Shown here one piece after another: positions 1 through 60,868 of a DNA stretch of 64,000 bases. This DNA is from a bacterium. Lineage in GTDB: Bacteria > UBA8248. A model generated the notes under the pieces. It was not told where the DNA came from. It saw only the letters and a list, made by a program, of their open reading frames with translations, and did not search any database. Every line of letters begins with the position of its first letter. Position 1 is the stretch's first letter. The position numbers and the translations under genes are program-made. Location of the stretch: the NCBI GenBank assembly GCA_965261085.1, contig OZ253442.1, positions 1,120,001 to 1,184,000 of the forward strand, given 5' to 3'.

Positions 1-184
1 TGAAATAACGGGCCAACCGCAGCGCAGTCTCAGCAGTGATACCCCGGCGCCCACGAACGATTTCGCTGATTCGCACCGGTGATACACCAATCGCCCTGGC
101 GAGAGCGGCGCAAGACAGCGCGAAAGGCTGCATAAAATCGTGTTTCAAAATTTCGCCGGGGTGAACTGGTTCCAGCTTGCTCAT
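1..184 (-). CDS. higA: HigA-family antitoxin (HTH), runs off window start
   Basis: Manual translation from ATG 184: MSKLEPVHPGEILKHDFMQPFALSCAALARAIGVSPVRISEIVRGRRGITAETALRLARYF; HPGEIL and ITAETALRL motifs; GGAGGG RBS; follows higB. Confidence 0.93.
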   Translation of the reverse strand, partial: MSKLEPVHPGEILKHDFMQPFALSCAALARAIGVSPVRISEIVRGRRGITAETALRLARYF

Positions 185-206
185 GGCGCTCCCTCCTTGT
201 TCGGCG

Positions 207-485
207 TTAGTGATAGTCGACTATTTCGACATCGTAGGCGTCTCCTTCAGAAAACCGGAAACAGAGCCGCCACTGCTCGTTGATCCGGATACTGTACCAA
301 CCGCGGAGTTCGCCTCGTAGCGCCTCGAGCCGATTCCCTGGTGGCACCCGAAGGAAAGCGAGCGTTGCGGCAGCATCCAACTGCGCGAGTTTACGCCGAG
401 CGACTCGTTCCACGCTCGCGAAACGGCGCACCCGATAATTATTGGCGAGCCGTTCGGTATCCTTGCAACGGTAGCTTCGAATCAT
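207..485 (-). CDS. higB: HigB-family (RelE superfamily) toxin
   Basis: MIRSY...PPGNRLEALRG...YSIRINEQWRLCFRF...VEIVDYH; toxin precedes antitoxin. Confidence 0.93.
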   Translation of the reverse strand: MIRSYRCKDTERLANNYRVRRFASVERVARRKLAQLDAAATLAFLRVPPGNRLEALRGELRGWYSIRINEQWRLCFRFSEGDAYDVEIVDYH

Positions 486-747
486 CTGTCGCCAGATATG
501 GCATTTCGATGGGTTGTTGTCAAATAATCCAGTGAATGGGCGTCCAGATAAGCCATACAGAGGAAACTACATCCCCGGGCAAATAAATCAAGCAACAGGC
601 CCGAGGCTAGACATGGCATTTACAAACCTTTTGGCGAGTTTTTCGCATCCCTTCTCTCCAGAGAGCGTATCATCGCACCATTTGATCCATGGTTTCGAAG
701 CCGACCCTCTTGAATCGATGAATTTGACTTAAGGTTTTTACTGATTC

Positions 748-776
748 ATGTTCCCCGCCCGCGCGGGGATGAACCG
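748..776 (+). CRISPR. Solitary type I-E-like CRISPR repeat (no array, no cas genes in window)
   Basis: ATGTTCCCCGCCCGCGCGGGGATGAACCG, 29 nt, TCCCCGC/GCGGGGA stem and ATGAACCG 3' handle as in I-E repeats. Confidence 0.7.
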
Positions 777-1179
777 CCGGACGATGGATGAACCCGGAAA
801 CCACCCCAGGAGCGCGGAAAGAGGCTGCTTTCGCCGGGACACGACGGCGCATCCGGCATTCCCACCCCCCCGGTTTCCGGTTTCGGGGGAAGACGCACGA
901 CCCTCATCGCAGGCCTGCGCGCGTCTGTCGTAAAACCGTCGATACTCCGTTTGTTGCCCGGTTGAAACACCCGTACATTCGTATTATATTCGATATTGTA
1001 AGACCGATGGGAGCGCCGGCGGGAAATCCCCGGCGACGATTGCGCGCTCCGCGCCTGGTCCGTGACCGGCGGATGCGCGGCAGCGCTTCCGCGACACGCA
1101 AGGCCGGGAGAACACCTCTTTGGGAATCCGTGCACGAGACAGAAGCCGCACCGGCTGGAGGGCCGTCCTGGAGCCCGGC

Positions 1180-1770
1180 ATGTGGTTGCGCTCGCTGCTC
1201 TTAACGGCTGTCTTCGTCGTTTCGACCTCGGCGCTGGCGTGTATCGTGGGGTTTGCGCGCGACACGACGGGCCATGACTGGCATGCGACCGGCAAGCTCT
1301 TCCTGGCGGAAATCCTCTTAGCGCTCAACTTCGACCCCCGGGCGCAGGTTAAATACCGGACGAGGGAGGGCGCGGAAGTGACTCTCGCCCGCGGTGAGCT
1401 CGCGTTCAGCGGCGAGGCGCTGCTGGCGCGGGACCACCTCCTACGCACGGCGAGGCGAGCCGCCGAACTCGGCGCCTGGTGCGGCATCGGCGGTGCGCTG
1501 GTGTGCCTGGTGCTGGTCCGGCGGCAAGAGGACGAACGCGGCGAGCGGCGCACGTCGCCCGAGCCGCCCCGCAGGAGGCCGGGCTCAGGTGTATCGACGC
1601 CGGTGGCCACGGCGCCTGTTCGCGCACCGGCGGTGCGGCCGCCGGGACCGGATACTCCGCGGCCCCTGAATCCGCAGCCTGCCGGCTCGGACCGCAGGGA
1701 TACGGCCCCGGGCAGGGAAGACGCGGCGGCGCCCGCCCGCCGCGAACGCGGCTACGGGCGCTGGATCTGA
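1180..1770 (+). CDS. Mini-TraD: N-terminal membrane region of a coupling protein plus Pro-rich tail, no ATPase domain
   Basis: TTGHDWHATGKLFLAEILLALNFDPRAQVKYRTREG aligns by eye with TraD TTSAHEWRVVGLGVLAEAKLGLGYSPDSRQAYEWREG; stop overlaps traI start (TGATG); start uncertain (1120 or 1180). Confidence 0.65.
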   Translation: MWLRSLLLTAVFVVSTSALACIVGFARDTTGHDWHATGKLFLAEILLALNFDPRAQVKYRTREGAEVTLARGELAFSGEALLARDHLLRTARRAAELGAWCGIGGALVCLVLVRRQEDERGERRTSPEPPRRRPGSGVSTPVATAPVRAPAVRPPGPDTPRPLNPQPAGSDRRDTAPGREDAAAPARRERGYGRWI

Positions 1771-4751
1771 TGGTCGCCTCGATCGGCGCGGTGGCGAGCC
1801 CCTCGCAGGGCGCCGCCTACTACGAACGGGACGGCTACTACGCGAAGGACTCGGCCGAGCACCGGAGGCTGAGCGCCTGGGCCGGCAAGGGCGCCGAAGC
1901 CCTGGGCCTAGAGGGCGCAGTCGATCCGGACGTGTTCCGGGCGGTGCTCGAGGGCCATGTGCCGGACGGCTCCGGGCAACGCCTCGGCCGCAGGACCCGG
2001 GACGGAGAGATTCACCACCGGCCCGGGCGCGACCTCACCTTCTCGGCGCCCAAGTCCGTATCCCTCGTTGCGCTCATCGGCGGCGACGCGCGCATCGTCG
2101 ACGCCCACGAGCGCGCCGTCACGCGGGCGCTCGGGTGGTTCGAGCGAGGCACCGCCGAGACCCGGATGCGGGACCAGGCTACCGGACGGATGGTACGGGC
2201 CGGCGGCCAGAAGGCCGTGATCTCCACGTTCCGGCACGAGACGTCGCGGAACCTCGACCCGGCGCTGCATACCCACTCGGTCATCGCCAACATGTTGCTC
2301 GGCCCGGACGGCAAATGGAGGACGATGGCGAACGAGCGCCTCTATGCTTCCAAGATGCTGCTGGGCGCGCTCTACCGGAGCGAACTCGCAGGTGATCTGG
2401 CGAGGCTCGGGTACCGGATCGAGAAGACCCACGCCGACGGGCGATTCGAGATCGCGGGCGTCTCGCGCGAAATCGTCGAGGCGTTCTCCTCGCGCCGCGC
2501 CGAGATCGAAGCGGCGATGGAAAGCCGGGGCCACGGCGCCACGGCGGAGAACCAGCACCTCGCCCGGCGGGCGGCCCTGATGACCCGTGCGCACAAGCGC
2601 GACGTCGACAAGGAGGCGCTGCGCGGGATCTGGGCAAAACAGGCGTCAGAACTCGGCTTCGACGCGAAAGCGCTCGTCGCCTCGGCCATGGAGCGGGCGT
2701 CGCGCGGCCCGGAGAAAGAGAACTCACGGGAAGCGGGCAGGGACGCTCCGCCCGGGGCGGATCGGCAGGCGTACCTCATCGGGCATCCGTCGCGGACGGG
2801 ACCTGCGAAGGAGGCCGTCGAGTGGGCGATTTCGCATCTCTCGGAGCGTGATGCGGTGTTTGCGAGGAATGGACTGCTCGCCGCAGCGCTCGCCTACAGC
2901 CCCGGCGCCGCGTCCATCGGTGCCATCGAGCGGGTCGTCGAGGGTCTCACGCGCGAGGGCCGCCTGCACGATGCGCCCGTGCTCCCCGGATCGGGTCCGG
3001 GGCAGGCCGGAGGCGGGGGGCTCACCACCGATGTGGCCGTGGCCCGTGAGCGCGAGACGATCGCGCTGATGCGCGCGGGTGCTGCCCGGGGCAAGGCGGC
3101 GATGCGCGGCTGGATGGTGGATCGGCATCTGCGCAATGGGCCGCTCACGGCCGGGCAGAAACGGGCGGTGAAACTCATCCTTTCGGAGAAGGACCGGACC
3201 GTCGGCGTGCAGGGCTACGCCGGCGCCGGCAAGACCCGGATGCTCGATCGCGCGCGAACGATTGCGGGGAAGAAGGGCTGGCGCGTCGCGGGGCTCGCCC
3301 CCTCGGCGTCGGCGGTGCGCACGCTGGAGGCGGAATCGGGGATTAAGAGCGAGACCCTGCAGCGGTTCCTGGCGCGCAACGTCGGGCTGGCCGAAGGCCG
3401 CCTCACGAAAGGGGCCGCCAGAAAGATGCGCGCCGCCTTCGCGAAGACCGTGCTGGTGGTCGACGAGGGCTCGCTGGCGTCCACCGCCCAGGCCCGCGAC
3501 CTGCTCCGGATCGCGGGCGCCCTGCGCATACCGAAGCTCGTTCTCGTCGGGGACGCCAGGCAACTGGAAGCCGTCGACGCCGGCAAACCCTTCGCACAGC
3601 TCCAGGCAGCGGGCATGAAGACCGCGGTGATGGACGAGATCCTGCGCCAGCGCGACCCGGACCTCAAGGCCGCGGTCGAGGCGACTCTCGCGGGCGAGAT
3701 CGGGCGCGCATTTCAAAAACTGGGAGACAACGTCGCTGAAGTAAACCCCAAAAACATCGCGGGCGCCGTGGCGGCAAGGTGGCTGAAACTCTCCCCCGAC
3801 ATGCGCGAGCGCACCGGGGTGATGTCGCCTGGCCATGAACTGCGCGAGGCGATCAACGCCCACATCCGCGAACGCCTGGTCCGCGAGGGCCGCATCGCGG
3901 GTCCTGCGCTCAAGACGCGGAGGCTGGTTTCCAGGGGCTACACGAACGCCGAGAAGGCGTTAGCGGCCAACTACGCGCCCGGCGACGTGGTCGCCTTCCA
4001 CCGGTACTACAAGCGGATCGGGGTCGAAAAGGGCGAGGAGCGGCGCGTCATGGGCGTCGGTCGCGAGCGCGGAACCGTCCGGCTCGAAGGCCCTGAGGGC
4101 TCGAGCGTGGACTGGAAGCCGGCCCGGATCGGCGGGCGGCGGGGCGGGACCGAGGTCTACCGGGCCGAAACCATCGAGCTTCGCGCCGGCGACCGGGTGC
4201 GCTGGACCCGGAACGACAAGGGGCTGGGACTCGTGAACAGCGCCACCGCGGAGGTTTCAGGGGTACGCAACGGGCGGGTGACGTTCATGCTGGAGGAAGG
4301 CCGCAAGCTCGTCCTCACCCGGGGCGACCCGCAACTGCGCCATCTCGATCGCGCCTGGGCCTCGACCGTGCACGCCTTTCAGGGGCGCACGGTGGACAAC
4401 GTCATCGCCGCGATGGAGGCGAACCACCCTCACCTGACCACGGCGAAAGCGTTTTACGTCGAGATATCGCGCGCCCGCGATAGGGCCGAACTCGTCCCTG
4501 ACGACGCGAAGGCGCTCAGGGAACGCCTCGAAACCGTCACCGGCGAGCGCATCTCCGCACTCGAGGGCATTGGTGAATCCGTTCGTCCGGAGCCTGAACT
4601 CGACGTAAAGGCGCCTCTCGAACGCGAAATGCCGGAGCGGGAGCTGGCCGATTCCTCTTCCCCGGGCATGAAAACCGGACGAGAAATGCCGCGCACGAAG
4701 GCGCCCGAACCCGATCGCGGGAAGCGGATCGAGATGGACTTGGGGCTCTGA
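1770..4751 (+). CDS. traI: MOBF relaxase-helicase (TrwC/TraI type), copy 1
   Basis: YYERDGYY tyrosines, DLTFSAPKSVS, HETSRNLDPALHTH, GYAGAGKT Walker A, VVDE, STVHAFQG; start at MVASIG. Confidence 0.95.
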   Translation: MVASIGAVASPSQGAAYYERDGYYAKDSAEHRRLSAWAGKGAEALGLEGAVDPDVFRAVLEGHVPDGSGQRLGRRTRDGEIHHRPGRDLTFSAPKSVSLVALIGGDARIVDAHERAVTRALGWFERGTAETRMRDQATGRMVRAGGQKAVISTFRHETSRNLDPALHTHSVIANMLLGPDGKWRTMANERLYASKMLLGALYRSELAGDLARLGYRIEKTHADGRFEIAGVSREIVEAFSSRRAEIEAAMESRGHGATAENQHLARRAALMTRAHKRDVDKEALRGIWAKQASELGFDAKALVASAMERASRGPEKENSREAGRDAPPGADRQAYLIGHPSRTGPAKEAVEWAISHLSERDAVFARNGLLAAALAYSPGAASIGAIERVVEGLTREGRLHDAPVLPGSGPGQAGGGGLTTDVAVARERETIALMRAGAARGKAAMRGWMVDRHLRNGPLTAGQKRAVKLILSEKDRTVGVQGYAGAGKTRMLDRARTIAGKKGWRVAGLAPSASAVRTLEAESGIKSETLQRFLARNVGLAEGRLTKGAARKMRAAFAKTVLVVDEGSLASTAQARDLLRIAGALRIPKLVLVGDARQLEAVDAGKPFAQLQAAGMKTAVMDEILRQRDPDLKAAVEATLAGEIGRAFQKLGDNVAEVNPKNIAGAVAARWLKLSPDMRERTGVMSPGHELREAINAHIRERLVREGRIAGPALKTRRLVSRGYTNAEKALAANYAPGDVVAFHRYYKRIGVEKGEERRVMGVGRERGTVRLEGPEGSSVDWKPARIGGRRGGTEVYRAETIELRAGDRVRWTRNDKGLGLVNSATAEVSGVRNGRVTFMLEEGRKLVLTRGDPQLRHLDRAWASTVHAFQGRTVDNVIAAMEANHPHLTTAKAFYVEISRARDRAELVPDDAKALRERLETVTGERISALEGIGESVRPEPELDVKAPLEREMPERELADSSSPGMKTGREMPRTKAPEPDRGKRIEMDLGL

Positions 4752-7001: not shown

Positions 7002-7955
7002 TCAAGCCGCGACGCGCTTGACGGGTATGCCGAGGCTTTGGGCTTTGTCGACGAGGTTGTCCGTGATGCCCGAACCCGGGAACGCGATCACGCCCTTGGG
7101 GAGGAGTGCCAGGAGTTCGTCGTTGCGCCTGAAGGGAGCGGCCCGTCCGTGCGCATCCCAGTCGGGCTTGCACACGACTTGGTGGACGCCGTTTCGCTCG
7201 GCCCATCCCGCCGCTATCTTCTCGGCGCCCGGGCCGCCGCCGTGGACGAGAACGACGTCGGCGTACTTGGCCTTGACCTTGTCGAGATGGCCGATGATTT
7301 TGCCTGCGTCGTTCGCCTCCTTGCCTCCCGCGACGGCGACGAGGGTTCCCTGGGGCAAGTGCGCGGTGTTCTCGCGGTCCTTTCTGGCTCTTTGAAAGTC
7401 GCGCGCGTCGATCATGGCGGAGGTGAGCTTGCCGGTCTGGGAGACGTGGGAGCCTCGCCGTGGCCGCCATACCTCGCCGGTCTCGATGCGGTAGGCCTCT
7501 GCGGCCGTGTCGCGCAGTCCTTCGAAGGCGTCGCGGCGGGCGGAGAGATTTTGAGCGCGGTCGGTCTTGAGTTCGAGTTCGCGCGAGCGGATCTCGGAGC
7601 CGTCCTGCTCGCGCTGTAGTTCGCGGATGCCGGGGATGAGTTTGTCGGCGGCGCGGTCGAGGCGCTGTGTCTGCGCGTCGATGGTGTTGACGAAGCCCCA
7701 GAGGAGGTTTCTTCGCTCATCCGCAAGCTGCGTGCCGTCGGGCGCTGCCTCGGCGAGCAGGTGGAAGGCTTTAAGGACGGCGGCGGTCGCCTCGTGCTCG
7801 TCCCACACGGGGCGGTTGTCGAACTCATCCGGCCCGGGCGTTGCGCCGAAGAGGGCGGCCTGCTCGCAGACCATGGCGGTGAAGGATTCGTTCTGGGCTT
7901 CGTGTTCCGTGTGCTCGTTCATGTTCATCTCCTTGTGGTCGTGTGTAGCGGTCAT
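7002..7955 (-). CDS. DUF2493 (YspA-related SLOG domain) protein, copy 1
   Basis: VVLVHGGGPGAEKIAAGWA...PDWDAHGRAAPFRRND...VIAFPGSGITDNLVDKA. Confidence 0.85.
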   Translation of the reverse strand: MTATHDHKEMNMNEHTEHEAQNESFTAMVCEQAALFGATPGPDEFDNRPVWDEHEATAAVLKAFHLLAEAAPDGTQLADERRNLLWGFVNTIDAQTQRLDRAADKLIPGIRELQREQDGSEIRSRELELKTDRAQNLSARRDAFEGLRDTAAEAYRIETGEVWRPRRGSHVSQTGKLTSAMIDARDFQRARKDRENTAHLPQGTLVAVAGGKEANDAGKIIGHLDKVKAKYADVVLVHGGGPGAEKIAAGWAERNGVHQVVCKPDWDAHGRAAPFRRNDELLALLPKGVIAFPGSGITDNLVDKAQSLGIPVKRVAA

Positions 7956-14561: not shown

Positions 14562-15716
14562 TTATGTGACCACGGGATGATCCTCGCCATTCCCCCAGTC
14601 GATCCAGCTGAGGGCATCAGTTGAGAATCCCTGATTCCATACGCGTGTTTTGGCGGGATCTAGGAACGGAAAACACTTGAGGGCATGCTGCCTCGAATCA
14701 GCCAGTGTGATCAGTTGAATAGGCACGCGCCGATGCTCCCAGGAGGTGATATCGCCGCCCAGCTGGTACTGAACGAAGAGTCGGCCCAGCGTCTCATATG
14801 CGTAGCTGTCATATGGAGGCATCGAGTAGCCGATCACGACAATGGACGAATAGATGTCCTGGCCCGATGAAAGATTTTCCCACAGATCCAGGATGGGGTC
14901 GTATCCAAGCAGCTTGTCGTAAGCTGGTGGGAGAATGAAGGGAACGACTTGTGACACAACTCTCCCCTCTATGGGGAAGTGCGCTGCGTGGTTGGGGACG
15001 CGGAAGACTCGTGGGAGGATGTGATTCCCGAACGCCACCTCCGTCTGTCCTCGTGAAAGAGGCTCTGACGGAACTGTCGGAGCGGGGCCGAAGATCGGAT
15101 CCCGGTTGGGCACGTCGTGACCTTGCTCGGCGTGCCAGCGCACGGCAGCGTCAAGGTAGTAACGGTCATACCAGTCAATCGACCCGTGGAGCTTGAGGAG
15201 GTCAACAAATCTTGGTTCGAATCCACCCGGGTCCGTTATGAGCCACCACTCAGGACTAAGGGTGTACGGCTTGCCAGCGTCATCGAGTGCTTGCTCCAAG
15301 AGGGTGTCGTAATTGAACGTAAGCACGACGTCGCGGGGGCAAAGCCGCTGAGCAAAATCCCGGTACAGCTTCGGGGTGTCGCTGGGCGTCGCTTGAATGA
15401 GTATCCGCTGGATCGCTCGCCGCGCAGCGACTATTGACCGGCTGCCGTGGTCGAAGTACTCGTCGGAACCTATGAGGCGGAGGTAGTGCTTCCGGAGGCT
15501 ATATGCGAGTACGCGCTCCAGATCGATCGACTCACCTGGATACAGCGAAGACCATTCTCCGATCTCTTGTTCCAGGGTACCGTCCCAGCCGGAGAGCTGA
15601 AACGAGCCGCGGACATCCTCTCGGACGCGTTCAAGGAGACCATTCCCCAGAGGCAGGCCCCCGGGGGCGGAGAAGCCAGCCCCGAGTACGAATAGACGGT
15701 GAGGGGGTACGTTCAC
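14562..15716 (-). CDS. SIR2-like (SIR2_2) protein
   Basis: FVLGAGFS, LTFNYDTLLE, LKLHGSIDW, VVIGYS motifs. Confidence 0.88.
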   Translation of the reverse strand: MNVPPHRLFVLGAGFSAPGGLPLGNGLLERVREDVRGSFQLSGWDGTLEQEIGEWSSLYPGESIDLERVLAYSLRKHYLRLIGSDEYFDHGSRSIVAARRAIQRILIQATPSDTPKLYRDFAQRLCPRDVVLTFNYDTLLEQALDDAGKPYTLSPEWWLITDPGGFEPRFVDLLKLHGSIDWYDRYYLDAAVRWHAEQGHDVPNRDPIFGPAPTVPSEPLSRGQTEVAFGNHILPRVFRVPNHAAHFPIEGRVVSQVVPFILPPAYDKLLGYDPILDLWENLSSGQDIYSSIVVIGYSMPPYDSYAYETLGRLFVQYQLGGDITSWEHRRVPIQLITLADSRQHALKCFPFLDPAKTRVWNQGFSTDALSWIDWGNGEDHPVVT

Positions 15717-17215: not shown

Positions 17216-17246
17216 AGGGCCGGCGCTTCGGCGCCGGCCTTTTTTT
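17216..17246 (+). terminator. Intrinsic terminator
   Basis: GGCCGGCGC-TTCG-GCGCCGGCC-TTTTTTT. Confidence 0.8.
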
Positions 17247-17271
17247 GCTCTTTATCCAGAGGAGGTCCGCC

Positions 17272-18267
17272 ATGCCCCAAACACCCTCTCCCGCTGCCGA
17301 AATCGCCGCGGCGCTCGCCTCGCGCGCCGAGGACGTCTGCCGCCGCTATCTGCCGCAAGGCAAGAAGCAGGGCCGCTACTGGCTCGCGGGCGACGTCGAC
17401 GGCGCGCCCGGGCGCTCGCTCTTCGTCCGCCTGCAGCCTCCGGGCGTACCGGGCAAGTGGTGTGATGCGGCCACCGGGGAGCACGGCGACCTGCTCGACC
17501 TGATCCGCCGCCGCAGCGCAGCATCCACGCTCCGCGCCGCCATGGACGAGGCGCGCGCCTTCCTCGCCCTGCCTGCCCCTATTTTACCGGGCGAGGGCCC
17601 GCCATACGACGCAAGGGAGGCGGCGCGGCGCATCTGGCGGCGTTGCCGCCCGATTGAGGGCGCCCCGGCCGAGACCTACCTCCATGCCCGGGGGATCACG
17701 CGGCGCCGCTTCCCCTCTCTGCGCTTCCACCCGGCGCTCTTCCACCGGGAGGCCGACAGCCGCCTGCCCGCACTGGTCGCCGCCGTGACCGACACGGACG
17801 GCGCGCTCCACGGCGTACACCGCACCTGGATCGATCCCGCTGCGCAGTCCAAGGCCGACGTCCTCCCGTCCCGCAAGGCGCTTGGCCGGGTCTTCGGACA
17901 CGCCGTGCGCTTAGGCGCCCCCGACGCTACGCTCCTGGTCGGGGAGGGGATCGAGACCGTGCTCTCGCTCGTAAGCGCCGCGCCCCGGATCCCGGCGGCA
18001 GCCGCTCTCTCCGCAGGCAGCCTCGGCGCCTTCATCCCGCCCGAGGGGCTCTCCCGCCTGATCATCGCCCGTGACAACGACGTGGAAGGTGAGAGGGCTG
18101 CGGAGCGCCTCGCCCGGCGCTGCGCATGGGCCGGGATCGACGCCCGCGTCATCGTCTCTGAACGCGGCGACTTCAACGACGACCTCGCTGCGCTCGGACC
18201 CGCTGCCCTCGCCGCACGGCTCGGTCCGCTCTTCCGCTTCGCGAGAATCGGAGAGGAGCGGGCCTGA
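17272..18267 (+). CDS. Toprim-domain primase-like protein
   Basis: YLHARGI, LVAAVTD..GVHRTWI, LVGEGIETVLS, IARDND, GDFND; GGAGG RBS. Confidence 0.85.
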   Translation: MPQTPSPAAEIAAALASRAEDVCRRYLPQGKKQGRYWLAGDVDGAPGRSLFVRLQPPGVPGKWCDAATGEHGDLLDLIRRRSAASTLRAAMDEARAFLALPAPILPGEGPPYDAREAARRIWRRCRPIEGAPAETYLHARGITRRRFPSLRFHPALFHREADSRLPALVAAVTDTDGALHGVHRTWIDPAAQSKADVLPSRKALGRVFGHAVRLGAPDATLLVGEGIETVLSLVSAAPRIPAAAALSAGSLGAFIPPEGLSRLIIARDNDVEGERAAERLARRCAWAGIDARVIVSERGDFNDDLAALGPAALAARLGPLFRFARIGEERA

Positions 18268-29090: not shown

Positions 29091-31020
29091 GTGCGCCAGG
29101 CTAACTGGCGGAAGGGCAGCCGGTGGAAGTCCGGCAGGATGGAAAGGCCAACCACCCCCTCCACCGCGAGCCGTGCGTCGTCACCCGCGAGGGTGTCGGC
29201 GAAGCGTCGGTAGCGGCGCGTGCGTGCGGGGCGATTGAGCACCGAAAGCACTCTACAACTGGAGCGCCGAGACTCTATACACGGTCGAAGGCAGCACTCC
29301 GCGGGCCGCCATGGTGAGGACCGCGGAGGCTCCACGGTGTCGAAGAACCCATGCACGCACGTACGCCCTCCACCGGGACCTGGGAGGTCTCCATGTCACC
29401 CCGCCGTCGTGGCGGGGTCGCTGAGGGAAGGAGGAATCCGTAGCCGATGACGAACGGCATGGAGAAGTCAGACCCGGCCGTAGTAGCCGAGAAGCCGACG
29501 AACAAGGGGACGCGAGTCCCGGCGGAGTCGGTGGAGTCAAGGGCCGGGCCCGAGGGGAATCCGGGAAGCCAAAGCACGCGCCGGACACAGGGCCGGGAGA
29601 GCGTGTCACAGGCGGCTGAGCGGATACGGCAATTCGTTCGACGGGAACCACGGGAACGTTTGACGGCGCTTCTCCACCACGTCACGCTCGATGCGCTGCG
29701 CTGGGCGTTCTTCGAGTTGAAGAGAAATGTTGCGGCAGGCGCGGACGGGGTGACGTGGCGGATGTACGCGGAAGGGCTGGAAGGCCGACTGGCCGACCTG
29801 CACGAGCGCGTGCAATCGGGGGCGTACCGGGCGACGCCGTCACGGCGGGTGAACATCCCCAAGCCCGACGGCGGGACACGACCGCTCGGCGTCGCGGCCA
29901 TCGAGGACAAGATAGTCCAGAAGGCCGTGACGGAGACAATCCTGACGCCGATATACGAGGCGGAGTTCCTGGGGTTCAGCTACGGGTTCCGGCCCGGGCG
30001 CGGGGCGCATGATGCGCTCGACGCGCTCGCAGTCGGGATAACACGGCGCAAAATCGACTGGGTGGTGGACATTGACATCCGCGCATTCTTCGACACGGTG
30101 TCGAGGGAGTGGCTGGTGCGCTTCTGTAAGCACCGCATCGGGGACAAGCGGGTCATCAGGCTCATCATCAAGTGGTTGAGGGCCGGTGTCATGGAGGCTG
30201 GAGAGTGGCGGGACGACCTGCGGGGAACGCCGCAAGGCTCGGTGGCATCACCGATTCTGGCGAACGTCTACCTGCACTACGTCCTCGACCTGTGGCTCCA
30301 GAAGAAGTGGCGCAGCCGCGAGGCCAAAGGCGACGCAATCATCGTTCGCTACGCCGACGACTTCGTGGTGGGATTTCAGCACAAGGAGGACGCGGAGCGG
30401 TTCCTGAGCGCCGTGAAGGAGCGGTTCGGAAGCTTCGGACTGGAGATACATCCCGACAAGACCCGGCTTATTGAGTTCGGGCGGTTTGCCATGGAGAATC
30501 GACGGCAGCGTGGTCAAGGTAGACCGGAGACCTTCGACTTCCTGGGTTTCACGCACTACTGCGCGAAAACTAGAGAAGGAGGGCGATTCCTGTTGGGGCG
30601 CAAGCCGGTCGCGAAACGGATGAGGCGCACCCTGAAGCGGATAAAAGAAGAGATACGCAGACGCATGCACCACAACATCAAGGATACGGCGAGATGGCTG
30701 GGCAGAGTGGTCGACGGATGGCTGAACTATTTTGCCGTCCCGACCAGCTTTCGGTATCTCCGGCAATTCGTCGCACGACTCATGCGGCTGTGGCTCCGCG
30801 CCCTGCGACGAAGGTCGCAAAAGGACCGCTATACGTGGGCAAGACTTGCAAAACTGGCCAGGACGTACTGGCCGAAGCTGAACGTCCGACACCCGTGGCC
30901 GAGCCAACGATTTACCGTCAGCGCTTTGAGGGGCGCAACCCAAGGGAGGAGCCGGATGCCTTAGCGGGCACGTCCGGATCTGTGCGGGGGGCGCCGGGTA
31001 ACCGGCGTTCCTACCGCGAT
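29091..31020 (+). mobile_element. Group II intron
   Basis: 5' GTGCG at 29091; domain V GAGCCGGATGCC..GGCACGTCCGGATC, domain VI and ..CGAT 3' end at 31020. Confidence 0.88.
29447..30964 (+). CDS. ltrA: Group II intron reverse transcriptase/maturase, no evident endonuclease domain
   Basis: IPKPDGGTRPLG, SYGFRPGR, GTPQGS..SPILANVYLH, RYADDF, FDFLGF. Confidence 0.95.
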   Translation: MTNGMEKSDPAVVAEKPTNKGTRVPAESVESRAGPEGNPGSQSTRRTQGRESVSQAAERIRQFVRREPRERLTALLHHVTLDALRWAFFELKRNVAAGADGVTWRMYAEGLEGRLADLHERVQSGAYRATPSRRVNIPKPDGGTRPLGVAAIEDKIVQKAVTETILTPIYEAEFLGFSYGFRPGRGAHDALDALAVGITRRKIDWVVDIDIRAFFDTVSREWLVRFCKHRIGDKRVIRLIIKWLRAGVMEAGEWRDDLRGTPQGSVASPILANVYLHYVLDLWLQKKWRSREAKGDAIIVRYADDFVVGFQHKEDAERFLSAVKERFGSFGLEIHPDKTRLIEFGRFAMENRRQRGQGRPETFDFLGFTHYCAKTREGGRFLLGRKPVAKRMRRTLKRIKEEIRRRMHHNIKDTARWLGRVVDGWLNYFAVPTSFRYLRQFVARLMRLWLRALRRRSQKDRYTWARLAKLARTYWPKLNVRHPWPSQRFTVSALRGATQGRSRMP

Positions 31021-35187: not shown

Positions 35188-35312
35188 TATTCGAGGCGTC
35201 GAAGTTCAGAACAATTGGCATCAGAGAGTTTTTTGGCCTCAGGCTACGCGCCACTTAAAACAATAGACTTTGGAAACTGGATGAATTAGGAGTGAAAAAA
35301 GCTTTTAGGAAG

Positions 35313-35400
35313 TGCATACGGAGAGACTCGAACTCTCACGGCTGCCTGTACAGCCACAGGATTTGGAGTCCAGTGTGTTTACCAATTCCACCACGAATGC
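35313..35400 (-). tRNA. tRNA with Leu-type body and CCA anticodon (possibly degenerate tRNA-Leu(CAA))
   Basis: GCATTCG TG GTGGAATTGGTAAACAC A CTGGA CTCCAAA TCCTG TGGCTG-TACAGG-CAGCCG T GAGAG TTCGAGT CTCTC CGTATGC A; two U:U mismatches; no encoded 3' CCA. Confidence 0.8.
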
Positions 35401-37466: not shown

Positions 37467-40328
37467 TCATAAACCGAGATCCCGCTCGACTGGTTTCTCG
37501 CGCACCGGTCCGGCCTCGCGGTCCGCGGCCCGGGCCGCTTTCGCATCGACTTCCGGACCCTTCGCCGGCGCTTCCCGCGCGACCTGCCCGGTCCCCTCGA
37601 GCGCCGAGACCCGCTCGCCCGTGGCCGCCTCGAGCCTCTCGCGCAGCGCCCCGGCGTCGTCGGTCACGAGTTCCGCCCGGTCCCGGGCGCGGCTGATCTC
37701 CACGTAGAGCGTCTTCTGGTTGGTGAGGTTGGGGTGGTTGGCCTCCATCGCGGCGATGACGGTATCCACGGTCCGGCCCTGGAAGGCATGCACCGTGGAA
37801 GCCCAGGCGCGGTCGATATGCCGCAGTTGGGGGTCGCCGGCGGTCATGTCGAGCCTTCGCCCGTCCTCGAGACGGAAGCCCACGCGACCGTCTTTCACGG
37901 CCGCTACCTCGGCGGTCTGGCTGTTCACCAGGCCGAGGTCCTTATCGTTGCGGGTCCAGCGGACCCGGTCGCCCTGTTGCAACTCCATCTGCTCGACCCG
38001 GTAGACCTCGACCCCGCCGCTCCTCGCCGCGATCCGTCCCGGCTCCCAGAGTACCGATCGCCCCTCTTTGCCTTCGAGCCTGACCGTGCGCGTCTCGTGA
38101 TCGACCCCGGCGACGCGGAGTTCGTCGCCCTTCTCTACGTCGAGACGCTTGTAGGGGCGGTGGAAGGCCACCACGTCACCGGGCGCGTAGTTCGCCGCGA
38201 GCGACTTCTCGGCGCGGGTGTAGCCGCGCGAGACGAGGCGTTCGGACTTCATGGCCGGGCCATGGACGACGCCGTCGCGGATAAGCCGCTCGCGGACGAT
38301 GGCGTTTATCTTTTCGCGGATCCTGTGGCTCGGCGCCATCAGCCCCGCCTGGGCGCGCGCTTCCGGCGAGAGCGCGAGCCAGCGCGCGGCGGCCGCGCCC
38401 GCGAGGTTGTCCGGCTTGACTTCGGCGACGTTGGAGCCGAGCTTCTCGAAGGCGCGTTTCACGTCGCCTGACAGGCTCGCCTCGACGGCTGCTTTCAAGT
38501 CCGGGTCGCGCTGGCGCATGATCTCGTCCATGGTCGCCGTCTTCATGCCCGCCGACTGCAACTGCGCGAAGGGCTTGCCCGCGTCCACCGCGTCCAACTG
38601 TTTCGCATCGCCGACCAGCACCAGGCGCGGAAGGCGCAAGGTATTGGCGACCCTGAGGAGGTCGCGGGCCTGCACCGTGGAGGCGAGAGAACCCTCGTCC
38701 ACCACGAGCACGGTCTTGCGGAACGCCGCGCGCATCTCCTTCTCGCCCTTCCTGGTCAGCCGGCCCTGGGCCAGCCCAGAGTTTCTCGCGAGGAAGCGCT
38801 GCAGCGTCTCGCTCTTTATCCCGGCCTCGGCTTCCAAGGTCCGAGCGGCCGAGGCCGAGGGCGCGAGACCCTTGACCTCGTAGCCGCGTTTTTCCAGAAG
38901 GGCGCGGGCGCGGTCCAGCATGGTGGTCTTGCCGGTACCGGCATAGCCCTGCACGCCGACGACGCGGTCATATTCCGAGAGGATGAGCCGGACGGCGTCC
39001 TTCTGTCCCGCCGTGAGCGGCCCCTTGTGCAGATGCGCGCTCACCATCCAGCTCCGCATGGGCGCCCGGCCACGGTTCTCACCACCGCGCATGAGCGCAA
39101 TGGTCTCGCGTTCGTCGGCGAGCGCCTTCTCCGTGGTCATGCCGTCGCCGCCTTCGAGAGCGGGAGCGGCGTGGAGCCGGCCTTCCTTGCGCAGGTCCTC
39201 GACGGCCCGTTCGGCGGCATCGGCGGTGACCGCGCCGGGGGACCAGGCGAGCGCCCCCGCGAGAAGATCGGCGCGGGCGAACACCGCCTCGCGCTCGGCG
39301 AGATGGGCCACCGCCCATTCCACCGCTTCGGCCGCCGGCTCCTTCGTTGCCGGTTCCCGCCGCGACGGGTCGACATCCCGCACGGAAGCGTTCTCCCGGC
39401 CGGCGGCCCTGGACATCGCCTCGGCGGCGAGCGCCCGCGCGTCGAACCCCAGCCCGTCGGCCTGTTTCTCCCAGACGTTCCTGAGGGCCGTCTTGTCCAC
39501 GTCGCGTTTGTGGACCCGGGTCATGAGCGCCGCGCGTTCGGCCAGGCGCGGGTTCCCCGCCGTCTCCCCGAGACCCCGTTCGGCCACCGCCGCCTCGATC
39601 TCCGCGCGCCGGGTCGAGAACGCCTCGATCACAGAGCGGGAAACGCCCGCGATCTCGAACCGCCCGTCGGCGTGGGTCTTCTCGGCGCGGTAGCCGAGCC
39701 CGCCCAACTCCCGCGCGAGTTCGCTCCGGTAGACCATGCCGATGAGCTTCTGGCGGCGGTAGAGCGCCTCGTTGGCCATGGTCCGCCACTTGCCGTCCGC
39801 GCCCTTTACCATGTTGGCGAGGACCGCGTGGGTGTGGAGCTGGGGGTCGAGGTTGCGCGAGGTGTCGTGCCGGAAGGTAGCTGCCACCGTCTTCTGCTCG
39901 CCCGTCCTGACCATGCGGCCCGTCCCGGGGTCGCGCATGCGGGTCTCGGCGGCGTTCCTCTCGACCCAGGCGAGGGTGCGCCCGACGGCGCGGTCGTGGG
40001 CCCGGGTTACGCGCGCATCGCCTCCCACGAGCGCTGCCAGAGAGACGGACTTGGGGGCCGAGAAGGTGAGGTCGCGCCCGGGCCGGTGGTGGATGCCGCC
40101 GTCCTTGCCGGGACGGCCCAGTTGCGGTCCACCCGGCACTTTGCCTTCCAGCACCGCCTTGAAGACGTCCGGGTCGACAGGACCCGATAGCCCCAAGTCC
40201 GCCGCACCCTTTCCGGCCCAGGCGCTCGCCTCCCTGTGCGCCGGGTCGTCTTTCGCGTAGTAGCCGTCCCGCTCGTAGTAGGAGGCGCCCTGCGCGGGAG
40301 CGGCGACGGCGCCGATCGATACGACCAT
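37467..40328 (-). CDS. traI: MOBF relaxase-helicase, copy 2
   Basis: YYERDGYY, DLTFSAPKSVS, HDTSRNLDPQLHTH, GYAGTGKT; TAATG overlap with traD. Confidence 0.95.
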   Translation of the reverse strand: MVVSIGAVAAPAQGASYYERDGYYAKDDPAHREASAWAGKGAADLGLSGPVDPDVFKAVLEGKVPGGPQLGRPGKDGGIHHRPGRDLTFSAPKSVSLAALVGGDARVTRAHDRAVGRTLAWVERNAAETRMRDPGTGRMVRTGEQKTVAATFRHDTSRNLDPQLHTHAVLANMVKGADGKWRTMANEALYRRQKLIGMVYRSELARELGGLGYRAEKTHADGRFEIAGVSRSVIEAFSTRRAEIEAAVAERGLGETAGNPRLAERAALMTRVHKRDVDKTALRNVWEKQADGLGFDARALAAEAMSRAAGRENASVRDVDPSRREPATKEPAAEAVEWAVAHLAEREAVFARADLLAGALAWSPGAVTADAAERAVEDLRKEGRLHAAPALEGGDGMTTEKALADERETIALMRGGENRGRAPMRSWMVSAHLHKGPLTAGQKDAVRLILSEYDRVVGVQGYAGTGKTTMLDRARALLEKRGYEVKGLAPSASAARTLEAEAGIKSETLQRFLARNSGLAQGRLTRKGEKEMRAAFRKTVLVVDEGSLASTVQARDLLRVANTLRLPRLVLVGDAKQLDAVDAGKPFAQLQSAGMKTATMDEIMRQRDPDLKAAVEASLSGDVKRAFEKLGSNVAEVKPDNLAGAAAARWLALSPEARAQAGLMAPSHRIREKINAIVRERLIRDGVVHGPAMKSERLVSRGYTRAEKSLAANYAPGDVVAFHRPYKRLDVEKGDELRVAGVDHETRTVRLEGKEGRSVLWEPGRIAARSGGVEVYRVEQMELQQGDRVRWTRNDKDLGLVNSQTAEVAAVKDGRVGFRLEDGRRLDMTAGDPQLRHIDRAWASTVHAFQGRTVDTVIAAMEANHPNLTNQKTLYVEISRARDRAELVTDDAGALRERLEAATGERVSALEGTGQVAREAPAKGPEVDAKAARAADREAGPVREKPVERDLGL

Positions 40329-42421
40329 TACAGCCAGTCGACCGGCCGGCGCGCCTCCGCGCCGCCGTCTACGGGTCCATCCGGATCGACCGCGGGGTCT
40401 TCCCGCTGTCCGTAAATGGCGGAATCCCGGCCGTCGGAACCAGCCGCCTCGACCTCGGGTATTTCCGCGCCTTCCGCCTCCACCGCGCGGCATTCGGCCG
40501 GGGCCGGCCCGGGTTCTCCCTGGGGTTCCGGTTCAGGCATCTCCCGGGCCCTTGTCGCCGTGTCACGCCCTCCGGGCGGTGCTCCGGGCGGTGCTCCGGG
40601 CAGTGCGGATGCCTCCACCTCTGCGTTTCCCGGGGTTTCCTGTGGCTCGGCCTCCGTGTCCTTCGCCTCGAGGGCCGGTATGTCGCCTCTCGGCACGAAG
40701 CTCTCGGCGGCTTTGGGCCTTTTCACGTAGGGAAGACTGATCCGGGCCACGGGCCAGGGACCGGGGAACTTGAGGTAGCCGCATAAATTCTCGAGGCGCA
40801 TGATCTCCGACGGCAGGGCCAGGGGGCGCATCTCGCGGCGCTGGGTGAGCGAGACCCCGTCCCGCATGGAACTCGCGCCGTAGCTCAAGCCCTGCGCGTA
40901 TTCCGTGACCTCGCCGCGTCCCAAGCTCTCGGCCGACCAGCGCGCCGTCTCCTGGTCGGGCGCCGCCAGCACCACCCGGGTGCCGCAGAGCCCCGACACG
41001 GTCTCGGCGCCGTTTCGGCCGTAGAGGTCGCGCAGGGCGGAGAACACCTGGATCCCGAGCACGAAGCACCCGCCGAACTGGCGCGATTCCGCGAGACCGG
41101 GCTGTAAGCTCGGCACCTGGTGTAAGGTGGGAAGTTCGTCGAGCACCACCCAGACCCTGCGCGCGTCGTCCCGGCCGAGGGAGAGGAGCGCGTTCACCGC
41201 GATCTCGAGCCAGGTGGAGATGAGACCTCTCAAGCTCGCGTGCTGGTCCCCGCGTGAGGTCAGGAACAGGAAGCCCGACTCGTCTTCGCGTTCCACCCAC
41301 TCTCTTATCGAGAAGGGTGCGCCCGTGTCGGGCAGGAACTCGAGCGCGCTCAAATGCGCGGTCAGCATGGCGCGCACCGAGAGAGCGGTCTTGGGGTTCT
41401 CCGGATCCACGATGGACTGGGCCACCGTGCCCTCCATGGCCTGGGCCAGGGCGGTGAGTTCGGTCTTGAGCAGGTGATCGACCAGCACCCGGTTCTCGGT
41501 CACGCCCTGTTTCCAGAGGACGCCCGCGCCGTTTGAGAACAGCTGCCTCGCGGCCGTGACCCAGAAGGGGTCCACCGTGTCCTTCTGCTGGGGGATAAGA
41601 GCGGCGGCCATCGTGTCGAAGTCCCGGGGCGTCCTCGCCTCGAAAAAAGGCGACCAGCGCGGCGCCCGGGCGTCCAGGGGGTTCATCAGAACGTCGCGGG
41701 CGGGGTCGTAGTATGCCCCCGTATAGCTCCCCATCTTGTCGTAGAGGATGCAGCGCTCCCCCCGGGCGCGGATCTGCGCGACCAGGTCCGAGATCAGGAC
41801 GGTCTTGCCCGAACCGGTGGTGCCCGAGACGATGGTGTGCTGGGTCTCGGCGCGCTTTGGCCAGGGTATCCCTGCGATGCGGCAAGACGCCCGTCGAGCG
41901 CTCGGGAAGAGGGCTTCCGCCAGGCGGGCGGAGGCGGGCTGTACGCGCCGTCTGAGCGCACCGGCGGATGTCATCTCCGCTCCCCGGACCCTCTGTGCGC
42001 GGGCCAGGCGCCGGCCCAGGAACCAGAAGGCGAGCGCGCAGAGGAGAATGCCGCCCAAGCCGATCCAGAGGCCCAGCCAGGCCTTTGCATGGATGGCGCC
42101 CAAGAGGCGCCTTTTGATCCGCTCGATCCGGGGGTCCGCCGCGATGAGGGCGATCCGCTCGCTCGTCCGCGCGCCTTCGCGCCACTCGTAGGCCTGGCGC
42201 GAATCTGGAGAATATCCCAGGCCGAGCTTGGCCTCGGCCAAGACACCCAGGCCTACGACCCGCCATTCATGGGCGCTCGTGGTGCGCCAGACCCCGATGA
42301 CGGGGACCAGAACGATCGTCAGGAGGAGTCCTAAAATCCCCCAGCGGACGAGCTGGCCCCACATATGGACGTCGTGCAAGAGGGTCTGGCCTCCCCTTAA
42401 GGTTGCGTTTCCGTACGTCAT
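40328..42421 (-). CDS. traD: Type IV coupling protein TraD/TrwB
   Basis: Two N-terminal TM segments, GTTGSGKT, WVVLDELPTL, RQFGGCFVLGIQ; GAGGA RBS at MTYGNA. Confidence 0.93.
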   Translation of the reverse strand: MTYGNATLRGGQTLLHDVHMWGQLVRWGILGLLLTIVLVPVIGVWRTTSAHEWRVVGLGVLAEAKLGLGYSPDSRQAYEWREGARTSERIALIAADPRIERIKRRLLGAIHAKAWLGLWIGLGGILLCALAFWFLGRRLARAQRVRGAEMTSAGALRRRVQPASARLAEALFPSARRASCRIAGIPWPKRAETQHTIVSGTTGSGKTVLISDLVAQIRARGERCILYDKMGSYTGAYYDPARDVLMNPLDARAPRWSPFFEARTPRDFDTMAAALIPQQKDTVDPFWVTAARQLFSNGAGVLWKQGVTENRVLVDHLLKTELTALAQAMEGTVAQSIVDPENPKTALSVRAMLTAHLSALEFLPDTGAPFSIREWVEREDESGFLFLTSRGDQHASLRGLISTWLEIAVNALLSLGRDDARRVWVVLDELPTLHQVPSLQPGLAESRQFGGCFVLGIQVFSALRDLYGRNGAETVSGLCGTRVVLAAPDQETARWSAESLGRGEVTEYAQGLSYGASSMRDGVSLTQRREMRPLALPSEIMRLENLCGYLKFPGPWPVARISLPYVKRPKAAESFVPRGDIPALEAKDTEAEPQETPGNAEVEASALPGAPPGAPPGGRDTATRAREMPEPEPQGEPGPAPAECRAVEAEGAEIPEVEAAGSDGRDSAIYGQREDPAVDPDGPVDGGAEARRPVDWL

Positions 42422-53557: not shown

Positions 53558-53920
53558 ATGCGGAATGACAATCCATCCGGCGGAACCGGCCGGCGCGCCC
53601 GCGCCCTCGTCCTCGGGGGACCCCTCCTCGCGTTTCTCTTCACCCTCTTCGTCCTCACGACCGGGAGCGGGTTCCATCTGATCGTCGGCGTCTGGTTCTG
53701 GGCCGTTCTCTGGACCTTCTCCTCCGCGCTCATGGGCGTCCTGTGGCGGGGAATCCGCCATGGGGACTGGTCCGCCTTCCGCCGCTACGAGTTCCCCGAA
53801 GATGACGGCGAGCGGTTCGATTGGTCGACCCGGACCGGCCGCTACGCCTGGCGCCGGGATTACGAGGAGGGAGGTCTTAACGAGGAAGGGGGTTTTCACG
53901 ATCACGGCCCCATCACCTGA
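53558..53920 (+). CDS. Small two-TM protein convergent with traG, entry-exclusion candidate
   Basis: Two hydrophobic helices, acidic tail, GAGG RBS; position like eex of SXT/IncC. Confidence 0.55.
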   Translation: MRNDNPSGGTGRRARALVLGGPLLAFLFTLFVLTTGSGFHLIVGVWFWAVLWTFSSALMGVLWRGIRHGDWSAFRRYEFPEDDGERFDWSTRTGRYAWRRDYEEGGLNEEGGFHDHGPIT

Positions 53921-56823: not shown

Positions 56824-56846
56824 GGCTGTTTATCCCTGCTACGGCG

Positions 56847-58259
56847 CTACCGGGCGCCGGCCGCGCCGCGGGAGAAGGCGAGCGCCGCGCGGAGTTCGGC
56901 CGAGAGCGCGCCCGCGAGTTCGGTCTCGATGAGCCTTAGTTTCTCGACCACGGCGAGGGCGGTGTTGAATCGCGCAAGTCCCTCGTGGCGGTGGCGAGCG
57001 AGCGCGGTCCGGTTCCTGCGCAGCCCCTCGCGCCAGCGCGAGAGCCGCTCTCCGTCGGCGACGTCGAGTGCGCCCGCGCGTTCCTCGACCGTGCGGTGTA
57101 AGTCCGATATCCAGACCTGGAGCACGTCGAGCGCCACCGCCTCGGCCAAGGCGTCCACCTCCTGTTCCACCACGGCGCCGCGGTAGGCGGCGGCGGTGTT
57201 CACGATCCGGTAGACCGGAAGCGTCGTCAGGTTGACGAGTCCCAGGGCGTCGGCCGGGGGCGCCGTGTCGGCCCGCACCGCGTCGACGAGGCGGCGGAGC
57301 AGTTCCGCGACCCGGTTCCTGAAGCCCCGCGCCGCGGGCACGGTGAGCCTCCCGAGGACGGGGTTGAGACACTCGGTCGAAGTGTCGCAGCGGTATACGG
57401 GCAAGTCGCCGCCTCCTTCCATCAGGATCTCGGTCACGCGGCGGTCGAGCGCCAGGGGTTCCAGCACGCGCACCCGGGGACCGGAAGGGTCGGAGTCCGA
57501 TACCGGGGCGGTCACGATCACGCTCCCCGATACCGACATGGCGAATTCACCCAGGTCGCGGTCGGACGCCAGGAAGCCCGAGGCGCGCACCGCGCGCCAG
57601 GCGTAGTTCACGTTGACCGGCGCCTGGTCCCTGAGCGCCCCCGCTGCCGCGGCCAGGGTCGAGTGGCGTTTCCCGTCCGCGCCGCAGCCGTGGCGCGCGG
57701 CGGCGTAATCGGAAAAAATGCCCTGCCGCGTCCCGACCGCGGCGCAGATCGCGGCGCTCGCCCGGTCGTTCTTCGACCAGACCGCGCCGACGAGAGCCTG
57801 GGCCGTCTCGCAGGAATCGAGGTTCCGGTTGTTCACCCACTGGGCGAGGGCCCTCAGCTTCGACATGGTCTCTGCGATCACGGGCGAGATGGTCTCGAGG
57901 GCGAGTTCGAAGGCGAAGCCCGCTGCGTTCTGTGCGACGGCGCGGGCGAAGGCGATCATCTGGTCGGAATCGATGAAGGAAAATGCGCCGGCGAACGCGT
58001 CGATGCCGCCGCAACCGGCGCGGTAGGAGGGCAGGCTCACCGTGGCGATGGACTCGGAGCGAACCGGCGCGCGCAGGTAGAGGTTGCCGAGCGTCCAGTG
58101 GCCCGAGGCCTGTCCGTCGAAGGCGGTGGGTCCGGTGGTGTTCACCGCCGCGCCCCGCCAGAAGTTCTCCATCTCCGACATCACGTCCGCGTGCGCGGGC
58201 GCGGCGAGAAGGAGCGCGAGGAGCAGGGCCGGCCCCAGGATTTTTCGTCCGGTGGTCAT
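56847..58259 (-). CDS. traH: F-type TraH
   Basis: PSYRAGCGGIDAFAGAFSFI; LDSCETAQALV. Confidence 0.92.
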   Translation of the reverse strand: MTTGRKILGPALLLALLLAAPAHADVMSEMENFWRGAAVNTTGPTAFDGQASGHWTLGNLYLRAPVRSESIATVSLPSYRAGCGGIDAFAGAFSFIDSDQMIAFARAVAQNAAGFAFELALETISPVIAETMSKLRALAQWVNNRNLDSCETAQALVGAVWSKNDRASAAICAAVGTRQGIFSDYAAARHGCGADGKRHSTLAAAAGALRDQAPVNVNYAWRAVRASGFLASDRDLGEFAMSVSGSVIVTAPVSDSDPSGPRVRVLEPLALDRRVTEILMEGGGDLPVYRCDTSTECLNPVLGRLTVPAARGFRNRVAELLRRLVDAVRADTAPPADALGLVNLTTLPVYRIVNTAAAYRGAVVEQEVDALAEAVALDVLQVWISDLHRTVEERAGALDVADGERLSRWREGLRRNRTALARHRHEGLARFNTALAVVEKLRLIETELAGALSAELRAALAFSRGAAGAR

Positions 58260-58263
58260 CCGT

Positions 58264-59061: not shown

Positions 59062-59070
59062 GGTCGTCCC

Positions 59071-60857: not shown

Positions 60858-60868
60858 TATCAATTTCC

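Follow-up and report, generated by a model that had tools for sequence, protein, structure and literature searches.

A solitary type I-E CRISPR repeat beside the relaxase module of an integrated MOBF element: captured array debris or RNA anti-CRISPR?

A single CRISPR repeat that stands alone on a mobile element raises a simple question, namely, whether it serves the element or is only carried along by it. Such a sequence of 29 nt, ATGTTCCCCGCCCGCGCGGGGATGAACCG, is found near the left edge of the stretch of bacterial DNA analysed here (64 kb in all, hereafter the window), about 1 kb upstream of a TrwC relaxase gene (Table 1). Solitary repeat units (SRUs) and the RNA anti-CRISPRs (Racrs) RacrIE1 and RacrIE2 have been described by Camara-Wilpert et al. 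2023 (PMC10651486), a survey of solitary repeats on phages and plasmids. An earlier note on this DNA had proposed a Racr or a Cascade-guided regulator of the adjacent higBA toxin-antitoxin pair and had kept a relic or a chance hairpin as fallbacks. The relic is the reading which is placed first here, at a little short of an even chance.

Table 1. Features of the locus that holds the solitary repeat, with positions in the window.
Feature	Position	Strand	Remarks
higA antitoxin gene, 97 aa	1..184	-	HTH_3 1.1e-09; 3′ end and stop codon beyond the left edge of the window
higB toxin gene	207..485	-	HigB-like_toxin 2.6e-18; neighbouring cargo, outside the conserved module
AT-rich block directly 5′ of the repeat	624..747	+	common to 7 other copies; weakly leader-like
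TTGACT, -35-like hexamer	724..729	+	by eye
Solitary type I-E CRISPR repeat (SRU)	748..776	+	7-bp GC stem, 4-nt loop CCGC, 8-nt 5′-handle ATGAACCG
Lineage-specific segment 3′ of the repeat	777..856	+	identity 0.74; not a spacer-repeat unit
GC-rich hairpin CCCCCGG...CCGGGGG	857..900	+	5′ end GCATTCCC resembles the repeat start
oriT-like core, short inverted repeat then TGTCGT/AA	909..933	+	alignment with L058, L061, L063, and L064
Promoter-like site TTGAAA-17-TATATT	962..990	+	for the ORF216-relaxase operon; kept in close relatives
Conserved 216-aa ORF, no known family	1120..1770	+	always 5′ of the relaxase gene
TrwC/MOBF relaxase-helicase, 993 aa, intact	1770..4751	+	TrwC 1.2e-81, AAA_30 1.8e-44

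Judged by its sequence and predicted fold, the 29-mer is a genuine type I-E CRISPR repeat which answers to the definition of an SRU. The repeat, the TTGACT hexamer, and the fragment GGATGAACC further downstream were all recovered in the sequence as first reported. With up to 3 mismatches allowed, a single copy of the repeat is present in the window; the repeat-core pattern, at up to 2 mismatches, has one occurrence in the entire 4.27 Mb single-contig genome. Array repeats from the same genus, and from two genomes of another family (G042 and G044), read GTGTTCCCCGCCC(AC/GT)GCGGGGATGAACCG and differ from it only in the loop and in the first base of internal repeats; the first repeats of three arrays (G012, G042, and G044) start with A, as the window repeat does. 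The predicted RNA fold comprises 7 pairs and a 4-nt loop, as in the array repeat of the genus, and both the stem and the 8-nt handle are intact. A chance hairpin is rejected because the repeat equals these array repeats apart from the loop, and no match arose in 100 shuffles (0/100). Rfam gave no match in positions 1-3000 at E≤1.

The repeat is also alone. An ungapped scan of positions 481-1120 on both strands detected no second repeat, in line with the earlier observation that no full repeat follows some 32 nt further on. The best other score on the + strand, 17/29 at 767, is due solely to the GGATGAACC fragment at 786-794 on that strand, and scores of 17-18 on the - strand at 745-749 reflect the palindromic stem of the repeat itself. 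The fragment had been put forward as a second handle. It is best read as chance and is rejected as a real partial repeat, because a score of 17/29 is common background in the window (about 9e-4 per position) and ten other copies of the element carry GGATTCACC, GGATTAACC, or similar in its place. Decayed spacer-repeat units between 777 and 856 were rejected too, since no repeat-like 29-mer occurs there. With the fragment counted as background, our own scan leaves no full or partial repeat nearby (SRUFinder applies a 100-bp partial-match rule; PMC10651486), and an array or mini-array of at least two repeats with a spacer of about 32 nt is not seen. The repeat is intergenic, lies on a mobile element, and does not adjoin cas genes; among the 57 window ORFs scanned (23 + 34), none matched a CRISPR-associated Pfam family, as had been stated for the window from the start.

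The rest of the host genome, whose completeness is 96%, is equally poor in CRISPR-Cas components. Pfam detected no Cas1 in it, and no Cas7e or Cas6e was found with the proteins of a relative, G021, as queries; the Pfam model for CasE was negative as well, but its control matched only in Thermus and its sensitivity is doubtful. A k-mer scan yielded no array, its 14 candidates being tandem repeats wherever they were inspected. The repeat pattern (up to 2 mismatches) was matched in 9 of 61 genomes, the own genome (G000) among them. Long arrays with a periodicity of 61 nt occur within the genus in G010 (412 repeats), G012 (25), and G021 (70, and one more repeat elsewhere in the genome), and G042 and G044, which belong to another family of the same class, likewise hold long arrays. 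The array of G021 is adjoined by a full type I-E operon (cas3, cse1, cse2, cas7, cas5, cas6e, cas1, and cas2, with identities assigned by order and size). Relatives of its Cas7 are present in 6 of the 61 genomes, including 3 of 22 other genomes of the genus, and G010, G012, and G021 each hold an I-E Cas7. Comparison with host I-E repeats, which had been suggested earlier, holds for the arrays of the genus, which match apart from the loop, but not for the own host, which is without an array.

The repeat belongs to an integrated mobile element and not to a host array. Its flanking DNA recurs at 72-87% identity in six genomes (G002, G013, G014, G018, G019, and G021), in some of them at several places and often in fragmentary copies, and there too it is followed by the 216-aa ORF, the relaxase gene, and the downstream genes. 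One further copy (L132) was found among metagenome contigs. The same arrangement is present in 12 of the 13 element copies examined, all of which come from one genus or from one metagenome contig, and in every repeat-bearing copy the repeat has the same orientation relative to the relaxase. The view that a solitary I-E repeat sits on a mobile element is supported by these recurring copies together with the match to array repeats.

The region to the left of the repeat contains higBA and, beyond it, integrase fragments and an IS1595 transposase. The higB start lies 263 bp away on the opposite strand, close to the 260 bp first given. This toxin-antitoxin neighbour, and a handle-bearing repeat followed by unique sequence, would suit a crRNA-like regulator (of the CreA or crlRNA type) by which Cascade would be directed to silence higBA or some other promoter. 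However, the link with higBA is not sustained by the other copies. Only G013 C1 shares the pair (98% identical), there about 10 kb from the relaxase module, so that the adjacency is missing in all of them; the upstream cargo of other copies comprises Hsp70-like plus AAA proteins, AbiEii, or unknown large proteins. Moreover, no downstream repeat provides a 3′ hairpin, and the host has no cas genes. The 40 nt 3′ of the repeat, taken from the window and from ten other copies, matched cas loci and the own genome only partially and at chance level. The best of these pseudo-spacer matches span 10-16 nt at E values of at least 0.02; in the match close to cas3 of G021, the paired positions are 20-30 and the seed is left unpaired. 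A PAM-flanked partial promoter match with a cognate Cas effector, the mark of CreA and crRNA-like RNAs, was not obtained in this search. The regulator reading, one of the two main proposals of the earlier note, is already largely refuted and is regarded as extremely improbable.

To the right of the repeat, the non-coding DNA resembles a transfer origin. The inverted repeat with TGTCGT is the only non-coding motif retained in relaxase relatives of other phyla, and its layout resembles the nic region of R388 (nic oligonucleotide in PMC4176350); on this likeness it is taken as the putative oriT core. The CRISPR repeat is situated about 150 nt (within about 180 bp) upstream of it. At such a distance, the hairpin and the AT-rich block could act as an oriT accessory that binds relaxosome proteins or IHF. 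The block is highly conserved, and one motif within it is putatively IHF-like. It is shared by six copies of G021 and G014 and by L132, and it ranks among the best-conserved non-coding segments, which suggests that something there is under selection. Within it, positions 660-725 (CATATCATCGCACCATTTGATCCATGGTTTCGAAGCC...TTGAATCGATGAATT) are the best-conserved non-coding stretch of the locus and contain several short palindromes. On the other hand, the repeat segment is lacking in close relatives (L033/L053, L057, and L060) and in more distant ones, all of which retain the oriT-like core and the promoter; the repeat is thus not retained together with the nic region among relaxase relatives, as a MOBF oriT inverted repeat would be. 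An accessory role would also leave the near-identity to a CRISPR repeat as an unexplained coincidence, and it is judged highly improbable.

The distribution of the repeat is far narrower than that of the relaxase. The relaxase family is widespread, with 350 confirmed relatives whose record titles come from many phyla. Upstream regions were inspected for the best 80 of these 350, and the repeat is missing from 76; the four loci with a repeat-like sequence upstream (three by pattern and one by alignment) all derive from G013, G014, and G021. When up to 5 edits were allowed, 25 of the 80 loci matched the pattern, but hits besides the repeat are weak and none occupies its upstream position, the recurrent weak match falling within the relaxase gene on the other strand. 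The repeat is absent, too, upstream of a second relaxase gene in the window (37470-40493), which is 70% identical to the first. This pattern of absence among relatives and at the second relaxase points to one late capture. A plasmid collection gave no match for positions 600-1800, and viral contigs gave none for the joint between leader and repeat.

In most copies of the lineage the repeat is decaying. The stem is canonical in 3 of the 13 copies, namely, the window, G013 C2 (with the handle ATGAGCCG), and G002. Seven copies (four of G021, two of G014, and L132) have lost 1 nt from the 5′ stem arm and have a changed handle, which reads ATGAAGCG in five, including all four of G021, and ATGAAGAG in L029 and L132. 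The predicted hairpin is lost in L024-L026 and is down to 4 bp in L028 and L029; L023, from G021, is still predicted to fold a canonical-like 7-bp hairpin. The repeat is degenerate in two copies (L031 and L017) and absent from one (L033). Conservation in related elements, on which the earlier note had made its proposal depend, is accordingly divided: the arrangement is kept in 12 of 13 copies, the canonical stem in only 3. When seven copies were compared pairwise, the repeat had a mean identity of 0.81, and its neighbours gave 0.86 (upstream block), 0.74 (positions 777-856), 0.86 (GC-rich hairpin), and 0.80 (core). By this measure, the repeat is under no special constraint and diverges as fast as its flanks. 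Several observations stand against simple drift. The three copies with the canonical stem retain all of its 14 bases although their flanks are only 74-80% identical, and such retention would occur by chance in about 4% of cases for one pair at 80% identity. In one variant, moreover, a G-U pair maintains the stem, a pairing that is of use only in RNA. The strong conservation of the upstream block also points to selection there.

A function as Racr has to be weighed at this point. The repeat would be transcribed and then bound and cut by Cas6e, and the products would tie up Cascade subunits in dead-end complexes; this may shield the element on its entry into relatives that bear a type I-E system. 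The sequence fits the published description of an SRU: it matches a known repeat, is intergenic, and sits on a mobile element away from cas genes. Two Racrs of type I-E have been validated, both in Pseudomonas aeruginosa (PMC10651486). The intact stem and handle in the window and the conserved position within the lineage would agree with such a function. Type I-E is sporadic in the genus (3/22 genomes), and recipients with it therefore exist; the only intact element in the I-E host G021, L023, is the one whose 7-bp hairpin still folds.

Several indirect tests nevertheless lean against the Racr reading. Racrs are usually expressed as small RNAs from their own promoter directly upstream (PMC10651486). 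A sigma-70 scan predicted no + strand promoter upstream of the repeat, although the promoters of this organism may escape such a scan; the only -10 candidate at 17 nt from TTGACT is CATGTT (3/6 matches), and transcription from it would start inside the repeat stem. Among sequencing runs, none of RNA was listed as containing this stretch. The repeat is conserved no better than its flanks, and 10 of the 13 copies have it damaged, degenerate, or missing, including all four in the I-E host G021. Type I-E is present in only this one of the six hosts with a repeat-bearing copy; five of six lack it, whereas about 90% of the hosts in the Racr survey had CRISPR-Cas (PMC10651486). None of the 284 spacers sampled (from G021, part of G010, G012, G042, and G044) targets the element, the longest matches measuring 16-18 nt for elements and 19 nt for the own genome. 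That the present host lacks cas genes is weak evidence in itself, because a mobile element might require an anti-CRISPR only at its entry into I-E hosts. Altogether, a Racr is considered possible but doubtful.

A more specific version of the Racr reading concerns the order of transfer. As a general rule, relaxase genes of MOBF systems lie in the lagging region (PMC3737333), and by this rule the repeat would lie in the leading region and be among the first DNA to enter a recipient. A working I-E Racr beside the oriT of an integrative mobilizable element, blunting I-E immunity as the very first DNA in, would be the first RNA anti-CRISPR tied to the conjugative leading edge, and that in an uncultured lineage. 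The orientation of the nic-like motif suggests the opposite. The inverted repeat of R388 is located between nic and trwA, with a T-strand that is antisense to the trw genes; in the window, the inverted repeat precedes TGTCGT on the sense strand of the relaxase. Compared with R388, the CRISPR repeat would thus be the last DNA in, and this version is held to be unlikely.

The joints between element lineages offer another approach. Homology breaks at or inside the repeat in four of them (L030, L031, L017, and L032), as is expected of a recombination joint, and the upstream cargo differs each time. The repeat could accordingly be a recombination handle, that is, homology with host arrays or other elements for module exchange or for joining arrays. 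For RecA-dependent recombination a homology of 29 nt is short, in G021 no copy was seen within or adjoining an array, and the breakpoints are equally explained by a capture event. SRU-aided integration into arrays has been raised in PMC10651486, and for the present locus a handle of this kind is considered very unlikely.

The reading preferred here, with tentative confidence that falls slightly below one half, is a captured fragment of a type I-E array, carried by the element, drifting, and inert in a cas-free host. The fragment would have comprised the leader-proximal repeat and possibly some leader. It would have been captured by recombination into the non-coding DNA that immediately precedes the oriT/relaxase module in an integrated MOBF mobilizable element, within the genus in which I-E systems with the same repeat circulate. 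Since then the repeat would have been inherited with the element lineage, drifting at the neutral rate of its surroundings, and in the present host it would do nothing.

Traces of such an origin were looked for on both sides of the repeat. A TTGAATCxATGA motif is common to the upstream block and to real I-E leaders. In a comparison with five leaders, 13/500 and 1/500 shuffles reached the score obtained for two of them, and the other three were not significant; this test has little power, because the real leaders show hardly any similarity among themselves (control score 20). In G002, the full repeat is followed by exactly 32 nt and then by the element hairpin, whose first bases, GAGTTCCCGCC, resemble the repeat start. 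No protospacer was found for this 32-nt stretch, which among the 61 genomes is present only in G002 itself. Lone or nearly lone I-E repeats elsewhere in the clade abut truncated transposase genes (L027 and L049) or rearranged arrays (L051), and scattered array debris therefore seems to be common in it. The breakpoints, the 32-nt spacing in G002, and these lone repeats are in keeping with an origin by recombination of arrays with mobile DNA.

The individual sites differ in their details. L049 and L050 (G029 C1, at about 345.5 kb and 3644 kb) are array stumps in which a single 32-nt spacer separates a repeat from a degenerate terminal repeat, and the trailing sequence is identical in both; by eye, the DNA just 5′ of L049 resembles the core region of an IS3-type transposase that is truncated at the repeat. 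A search for I-E Cas7 in the G029 genome was negative. At L051 (G042 C7, 1013302 and 1025405), the end of Cas2, a leader, and a first repeat are followed by non-array DNA. This array looks broken by inversion or insertion, because the trailing DNA is duplicated in inverted form 12 kb away behind a second identical repeat. L027/L044 (G021 C1, 1486765) is another lone I-E repeat, with the CCGC loop of the window repeat and no relaxase in its flanks. The DNA just 5′ of it reads by eye like the end of a transposase gene (no Pfam match), an AbiEii toxin gene adjoins it, and a DDE-transposase-like ORF below the Pfam cut-off lies about 1.3 kb upstream. At L114 (G042 C5, 1095388-1102551), a 67%-identical relaxase is found about 9 kb past the end of a 45-repeat I-E array, which is probably a coincidence.

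The locus can be compared with several known systems. Like RacrIE1 and RacrIE2 (PMC10651486), it has one intergenic I-E repeat with intact hairpin and handle on a mobile element and no adjoining cas genes. Unlike them, it lies on an integrated MOBF mobilizable element beside oriT and not on a phage or plasmid, it lacks a predicted promoter, its host has no CRISPR-Cas, and most of its sister copies are damaged. Decayed or orphan array remnants share with it the lone repeat, the possible leader remains, the neutral-looking drift, and the cas-free genome, but the window repeat moves with an element and occupies the same site in several genomes. CreA, crRNA-like RNAs, and mini-arrays in cas loci (bioRxiv 10.1101/2023.03.03.530964 and 10.1101/2024.10.29.618823) are likewise repeat-derived and outside a normal array; the window differs in that a second (degenerate) repeat is missing at spacer distance, as are a partial target and a cas locus, and in that its toxin-antitoxin neighbour is not conserved. 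Virus-borne mini-CRISPR arrays (PMC6858448) are also array-derived sequences on mobile elements, but the window lacks a spacer, and only the G002 copy has a spacer-like stretch of 32 nt.

A full-text literature search found no solitary repeat beside the oriT of an integrated MOBF element, although the supplementary lists of PMC10651486 might hold related entries. An active repeat would extend the range of RNA anti-CRISPRs to mobilizable islands and to the moment of entry during conjugation. An inert one, which is thought more likely, would be a dated example of a mobile element that has acquired array debris and carries it along, and it would caution against taking an intact-looking solitary repeat, in itself, as evidence of an anti-CRISPR.

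The remainder of the window contains other mobile DNA. Among the cargo proteins of the first element are a YAcAr SLOG-domain protein (7002-7955, -), a SIR2-like protein (14562-15716, -) with weak PADLOC SIR2 matches, and a Toprim/DUF7146 primase-like protein (17245-18267, +). A group II intron at 29126-30961 (+) consists of Rfam domains D1-D4 at 29126-29349 (156 bits) and then a 505-aa reverse transcriptase ORF. Among 19 neighbouring proteins, PADLOC matched only the SIR2-like protein and this reverse transcriptase, both far from the repeat; the neighbours were compared with Pfam and PADLOC, which are not anti-CRISPR libraries. A tRNA-Trp (CCA) at 35312-35400 (-) is 89 nt in length, unusually long for tRNA-Trp, and its location between a low-GC stretch (32-36 kb) and the second element makes it a possible integration site. 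The second TrwC relaxase gene is on the - strand, and F-type transfer genes for TraG_N, TraH, TraN, and TrbC at 53905-61271 (-) belong to the same element. Together they form a separate and probably self-transmissible element, which might mobilize the first one in trans.
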